Of a stretch of 64,000 nucleotides of DNA, positions 14,130-14,284 are shown in pieces. Below the pieces are notes generated by a model that saw nothing but the letters and a program-made list of their open reading frames with translations, was not told the DNA's origin and ran no database searches. This stretch comes from Escherichia coli. GTDB lineage: Bacteria > Pseudomonadota > Gammaproteobacteria > Enterobacterales > Enterobacteriaceae. Numbering within the stretch: the first letter of the stretch is position 1; each line of letters opens with the position of its first letter. The DNA is taken from the NCBI RefSeq assembly GCF_965641715.1, contig NZ_OZ282453.1, one strand, 5' to 3'. The translations under genes and the position numbers were made by a program.

Positions 14130-14135
14130 TTCAGC

Positions 14136-14168
14136 AAACGGGCGGTGGTATTACCGCCCGTTTTTTAT
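14136..14168. terminator. Intrinsic terminator downstream of potD
   Basis: aaaCGGGCGGTggtaTTACCGCCCGttttttat hairpin plus T-run. Confidence 0.7.
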
Positions 14169-14229
14169 TTAGCAAGGATGTGGTTAATGAGTCAGGACAG
14201 TAGAGTTTTATCCCGCTCTTTCGTCGGTA

Positions 14230-14275
14230 TTGTGGTCCGCTTGTAGACCTGATAAGCGTAGCGCATCAGGCAATG
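14230..14275. repeat. REP element in the potD-cobB intergenic region
   Basis: gtagacctgataagcgtagcgcatcaggca matches the E. coli REP consensus. Confidence 0.6.
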
Positions 14276-14284
14276 CTTCCTGCT

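Follow-up and report, generated by a model that had tools for sequence, protein, structure and literature searches.

The direct adjacency of potD and cobB in this E. coli strain is very probably the scar of an old deletion of ~1.3 kb, which would have occurred in a chromosome carrying the divergent type-2 allele of ymfA. The deletion would have taken nearly all of ymfA and ycfZ, plus the first REP of the downstream BIME. The short spacer represents a common and ordinary deletion allele that could already be seen before, and amounts to a strain difference. In what follows, the window is the whole 64-kb stretch of DNA that was analysed.

Gene order and content of the potD-cobB spacer

The two genes are convergent and flank a spacer of exactly 155 bp (14130-14284). 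The product of potD is the periplasmic binding protein of the spermidine/putrescine ABC transporter; cobB encodes a Sir2-family NAD+-dependent protein deacylase. An earlier note on this DNA had described the genes as adjacent, convergent and 155 bp apart, and the ORF coordinates agree. The features of the region are as follows.

13083-14129, plus strand: potD, intact, 348 aa (ORF list; Pfam SBP_bac_8/6/1; RefSeq annotation of orthologous loci)
14136-14170, plus strand: predicted intrinsic terminator of the pot operon (terminator scan and fold; sequence kept in K-12-type loci)
14174-14232, plus strand: ymfA remnant, comprising an SD-like AAGGA, an ATG at 14187 and 15 codons plus 1 nt (alignment to the K-12-like locus)
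14231-14236, no strand: deletion junction, placed to within a few nt (blastn breakpoints against K-12 at 14230/14235)
~14241-14272, no strand: single REP unit (pattern searches, fold hairpin, orthologous BIME sequences)
14285-15106, minus strand: cobB, intact, 273 aa (ORF list; Pfam SIR2, 4e-54; annotations)

In the MG1655 record the order is lolE (b1118), nagK (b1119), cobB (b1120), ycfZ (b1121), ymfA (b1122), potD (b1123) and potC (b1124). The earlier note had given b1120-b1123 in exactly this order; the possibility that K-12 itself has potD next to cobB was also looked at, and it does not hold. When positions 13000-15200 are aligned with MG1655, window 13000-14230 corresponds to MG1655 1182912-1181682 (97.0% identity) and window 14235-15200 to MG1655 1180390-1179426 (98.0% identity). 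The 1291 bp of MG1655 between these blocks (1180391-1181681) have no counterpart in window 13000-15200. YmfA and YcfZ are not encoded elsewhere in the 64-kb window either; the sole relevant tblastn match (search at E<=10) is to the first 15 ymfA codons, at 14187-14231. No part of the window codes for the TPM domain of YcfZ or for the membrane segments at its C-terminus; the best tblastn hit is not significant (E = 0.082) and lies in an unrelated region. Both the alignment and the tblastn search agree with the claim of the earlier note that the strain is without ymfA and ycfZ here.

Both genes encode membrane proteins. YmfA (153 aa) has DUF3592 at residues 40-112, between two hydrophobic segments; YcfZ (262 aa) combines a signal-like N-terminus with a TPM domain and with membrane segments at its C-terminal end. 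NCBIfam and PADLOC gave no match for either protein, and a PDB sequence search gave nothing usable.

None of the complete RefSeq genomes is identical to the window across 13000-15300. The closest complete-genome match to this region is NZ_CP031345.1 (O145 RM12367-C1; 1386899-1390513, 99.4%), in which potD carries an IS3-family element.

The earlier note took the spacer to be a terminator plus a REP. Both elements are present, and the 46-nt 5' remnant of ymfA had been missed. Seven nt past the potD stop, the terminator scan finds a 12-bp stem (7 GC pairs) at 14136-14163 with a 4-nt loop, followed by TTTATTT; the stretch 14136-14170 thus has the predicted make-up of an intrinsic (Rho-independent) terminator. 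An Rfam match to DapZ over the same terminator is rejected as chance (19.8 bits against a gathering score of 56; E = 0.64), and nothing in 13900-14500 rises above the Rfam threshold. The element at 14241-14272 is a REP in the usual sense of an extragenic imperfect palindrome of ~30-35 nt present in many copies per genome. Its end, CTTATC(A/C)GGCCTAC, is matched at 14243-14256 with 1 mismatch, and the window holds four such REP-end sites where 0.03 are expected. K-12-type genomes have a two-REP BIME 3' of ycfZ; only the cobB-proximal REP is left in this strain.

The ymfA remnant and the deletion junction

An intact ymfA is an ORF of ~153 codons with DUF3592; what the spacer holds is codons 1-15 (14187-14232). 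The reading frame continues to a stop at 14244-14246 and gives an ORF of 19 codons (MSQDSRVLSRSFVGIVVRL). Variants of this ORF occur: O157:H7 has K at residue 6, and Escherichia sp. E1V33 has S at residue 19.

Against the K-12 type, the remnant has ~8 mismatches in its last 21 nt, though the flanks are ~98% identical. The same pattern of divergence is found in all scar alleles, and a different one in all K-12-type alleles examined. A YmfA protein search returns several deeply divergent alleles, among them two (P0011 and P0025) with the N-terminus MSQDSNVLSRSFVGIG (in P0025, F replaces the first L); the remnant encodes MSQDSRVLSRSFVGIV, which matches this N-terminus. The 5' end of type-2 ymfA was taken from Logan/NCBI contigs. 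From the ATG, 44 of 46 nt of the remnant are identical to the type-2 allele at the P0011 locus (L086), after which the two sequences depart, and this identity points to a type-2 haplotype as the one in which the deletion arose. Drift or filler DNA had been considered as the source of the divergent remnant and was dropped after the type-2 match.

The cassette could in principle be missing because the lineage never had it, K-12 having gained the pair by insertion into an ancestral spacer like that of the window. This was considered using the cobB neighbourhoods of 80 species-representative genomes, in each of which PotD, YmfA, YcfZ and NagK were located. potD and cobB are directly adjacent in most other Enterobacteriaceae, with gaps of mostly 40-200 bp containing REP-like sequence in Citrobacter, Salmonella, Enterobacter, Kosakonia, Leclercia and others; on a deep time scale the cassette is thus an addition. 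However, the short outgroup spacers, made of REP-like sequence, show no sign of a ymfA start, and the empty sites of Citrobacter and Salmonella have nothing similar to the remnant; the scar therefore does not represent the original empty state. The window spacer retains the ymfA RBS, the start codon and 15 in-frame codons closely matching a real allele, and because these are kept it is read as a deletion scar. An insertion, moreover, would not start at codon 16 of its own gene. Primitive absence is thus very unlikely.

Among Escherichia representatives, the cassette is found in E. coli, E. whittamii and E. albertii. Klebsiella michiganensis (L092 4733-6672) has a ymfA/ycfZ pair of 53% identity at the same potD-cobB site, along with a further 105-aa membrane ORF, so that the cassette also occurs outside Escherichia. 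Its occurrence at this site is therefore that of a patchy accessory insert. Other Enterobacteriaceae have unrelated cargo in potD-cobB gaps of 1.5-4.8 kb (L009, L027, L030, L036, L038, L044, L046-L048, L070), for instance a 409-aa ORF (Enterobacter species), a 463-aa ORF (Kosakonia) or, in other cases, blocks of several genes. The spacer between potD and cobB is suggested to be a recurrent spot for insertion and replacement.

Comparison with the type-2 alleles L086 and L087 places the left edge of the junction at 14232. One end of the deletion would lie within ymfA, at codon 15/16, and the other between the two REPs, in their linker. The left parental site is formed by ymfA codons 14-16 (GGT ATT GGT), with the break after ...GGT ATT G and before GT TTG. 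On the right, the parental site is the BIME linker TTAATTGCG, in which ...TTAATTG is followed, across the break, by CG(T/C)CCC... In the scar, ...GGTATTG is followed by TGGTCCGCT... The only repeat common to both breakpoints is ATTG, a candidate microhomology, which is found at ymfA codon 15/16 and in the linker and is present once in the scar; at 4 nt it is weak evidence, and the adjoining linker is variable among alleles. The 6-9 nt directly right of ATTG (TGGTCCGCT) have no exact match in any sampled linker allele, and we therefore infer both the exact breakpoint and the mechanism. The surviving REP is 9 nt from the junction.

No integrase, IS or long repeat is found at the junction. The K-12 segment consists of ymfA, ycfZ and the BIME only, and so does not have the composition of a genomic island or of an insertion-excision module. 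Illegitimate recombination beside the REP, of a slippage or microhomology type, would be the most likely mechanism, because no mobile-element parts are present. The resulting allele would then have been maintained and passed on, by descent and probably also through homologous recombination in the conserved flanks.

The loss may also have taken two steps: a type-2 haplotype would first have lost ycfZ, as in E. coli E69 (L005) and L086, and then ~0.5 kb from ymfA codon 16 to the BIME linker. No type-2 haplotype with both genes intact was recovered. Type-2 ymfA is so far found only in decayed haplotypes, in which ycfZ is reduced to 9 codons (L005, L086) or fused to ymfA (L087/L088); the parental sequence is therefore rebuilt from decayed relatives, and a stepwise loss is conceivable. 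However, no feature of the scar separates one step from two, and the ycfZ-deletion junction of L086 is absent from it. Two-step decay, a variant of the main reading, is possible but less probable.

Distribution of the scar and the neighbouring prophage

In 560 of 5426 complete E. coli genomes (~10%), a 251-bp query spanning the junction is matched contiguously, with at least 80% of its length covered in one place; the figure is a maximum, since the search tool could have joined up rare alleles with partial deletions. Each of the junction matches listed is a single ungapped piece of 98-99% identity, and among the matches listed are many O157:H7 strains, O145 strains and further strains without a type, from pigs, chickens, cattle and humans. 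Of the same 5426 genomes, 4850 contain the interior of the K-12 cassette. Together the two classes make up 5410 of 5426; scar and cassette are therefore essentially exclusive, and genomes with the scar do not have the genes elsewhere.

An identical scar is found in O157:H7 Z910, O121 RM8352, strain 2018-05-2CC and Escherichia sp. E1V33. In E1V33, potD and cobB are only ~95% identical to those of the window. The presence of the same scar in a genome with ~5% divergence means that the allele is old, or has crossed lineages by recombination, or both.

The window starts inside a lambdoid prophage, whose end (1-12295) is integrated at the potB/potC junction. potA and potB are absent from the window, where potC is preceded by no more than the final 26 nt of potB. 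The following features belong to this end of the prophage.

7343-9814: exonuclease
9867-10145: xis
10114-11232: int
11336-11803: cargo ORF, predicted membrane protein of 155 aa (Pfam DUF2335, 2.8e-12)
11781-11984: cargo ORF of 67 aa, no Pfam family
12270-12295: potB 3' remnant (last 26 nt, duplicated), directly before potC

The same integrase is found next to potC in O157:H7 Z910, O121 RM8352 and UMNK88. The cargo block (11336-11984, ~0.9 kb) between int and attR is missing in O157:H7 Z910, where the int-potC gap is 167 bp, and is present in O121 RM8352, with both genes annotated identically, and in pig ETEC strains. The DUF2335 protein has a faint PADLOC match to PD-T4-6 (E = 0.0025) which is probably due to chance.

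The integrase gene is only 3 kb from the scar, and O157:H7 and O121 strains carry both prophage and scar. The deletion could on these grounds be a by-product of the prophage, through imprecise integration or excision or through a prophage-driven rearrangement. However, the two can be found apart: in strain 2018-05-2CC the scar occurs alongside an intact potABCD without any prophage, whereas the same int and cargo occur together with an intact ymfA-ycfZ in UMNK88 and many pig ETEC strains. These discordant genomes show that scar and prophage are unlinked. In addition, potC and potD, which separate the end of the prophage from the scar, are undisturbed. A role of the prophage in the deletion is thus extremely improbable.

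Relocation of ymfA and ycfZ, for example to the prophage cargo or to some other part of the genome, is scarcely credible. The earlier note had suggested comparing the cargo ORFs with YmfA and YcfZ, and the ORF at 11336-11803 does encode a predicted membrane protein of similar size (155 aa). The comparison came to nothing: BLASTP of this protein yields E = 0.38 with YmfA and 1.1 with YcfZ, and it belongs to DUF2335, as opposed to DUF3592 and TPM. The 67-aa ORF is also unrelated; it has no Pfam family, and YmfA/YcfZ tblastn finds nothing there. Beyond the ymfA remnant, the window has no significant tblastn match to either protein, and the scar and cassette genomes counted above do not add up to more than the total.

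Cassette polymorphism and comparison with known variation

Where the cassette is present, it is highly variable. With the MG1655 ymfA-ycfZ as query (L096 3985-5180), 3280 genomes are only 90-95% identical; potD and cobB are 97-99% identical. YmfA protein alleles within E. coli go down to 75% identity (P0012, 217 members), and divergent YmfA haplotypes are 75-80% identical in protein while their DNA flanks are 97-99% identical.

Besides the scar, the ymfA-ycfZ locus shows at least four further decay alleles, independent of one another. In the first, ycfZ is cut to 9 codons (E. coli E69, L005 5820-6405; a Logan contig, L086 3440-3611). The second is an in-frame ymfA-ycfZ fusion of 196 aa (P0025; L087 3001-3591). 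The third is an internal deletion which joins ymfA codon ~90 to ycfZ codon ~38 in Escherichia sp. MOD1-EC7003 (L007 5815-6412), and the fourth is a larger deletion from inside potD to the 3' end of ycfZ in strain JSMCR1 (L097 2234-2789).

Because the scar is shared across lineages, the cassette haplotypes are deeply divergent and at least four other decay alleles exist, the site can be viewed as an old cross-lineage polymorphism, possibly under balancing or diversifying selection on an envelope function such as a phage or predation target. This is a speculative view, and we consider it rather unlikely. A weaker alternative is that the hydrophobic 19-codon remnant ORF, which keeps its SD, could itself be expressed.

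Going by their sequences, potD, its terminator and cobB are intact, so that no effect on polyamine uptake or CobB would be expected. The only expected consequence would be the loss of two accessory envelope proteins, with a 19-codon remnant ORF left behind. For annotators, the short potD-cobB spacer should be treated as a genuine, widely shared deletion allele; it is neither an assembly error nor a prophage effect, and no ymfA/ycfZ function is to be expected at potD-cobB in this strain. A cassette that is hyper-polymorphic and repeatedly decaying, at a site that holds other cargo in other genera, may also be of modest use for assigning a function to YmfA and YcfZ.

Variation in these genes has been noted before, in mentions that are only incidental. 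As an array marker, b1121 is present in one O45 PEPEC group and absent from another, in the parts consulted of PMC2749873. It is listed as a putative virulence-associated gene, 'homologous to virulence factor', in the corresponding part of PMC3091784, and YmfA is found in only part of the pangenome according to a section of PMC8788219. ymfA and ycfZ are among the genes that differ between amoeba-grazing groups (PMC10304320), and ycfZ is a hit in a CRISPRi placental-barrier screen (PMC12940985). These mentions of a variable b1121 or YmfA mean that the presence/absence polymorphism was already known. The relevant portions of PMC2749873, PMC3091784 and PMC8788219 deal with presence or absence only and describe neither the scar nor its breakpoints nor the type of allele; the details of the scar are a minor addition to a known polymorphism.

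The window can be compared with three kinds of known variation. As with ycfZ/b1121 as a strain-variable marker on E. coli virulence and CGH microarrays, at least in the portions of those reports that were consulted, what is seen here is presence or absence between strains. As with illegitimate deletions associated with REPs and BIMEs, one breakpoint is in the linker of a two-REP BIME. Unlike in those deletions, the other breakpoint is inside ymfA and has no REP; this is therefore not REP-REP recombination, and any involvement of a REP would be putative. Lastly, comparisons of K-12 with EDL933 and Sakai have reportedly given the names 'K-islands' or 'K-loops' to K-12-specific segments absent from O157:H7. 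The b1121-b1122 segment resembles these in being short, missing from O157:H7-type chromosomes, flanked by collinear sequence and visible in RefSeq annotations. It differs in that no horizontally acquired island with mobility genes is involved; a small accessory cassette has been lost and a gene remnant left in its place, and the loss extends beyond O157:H7.
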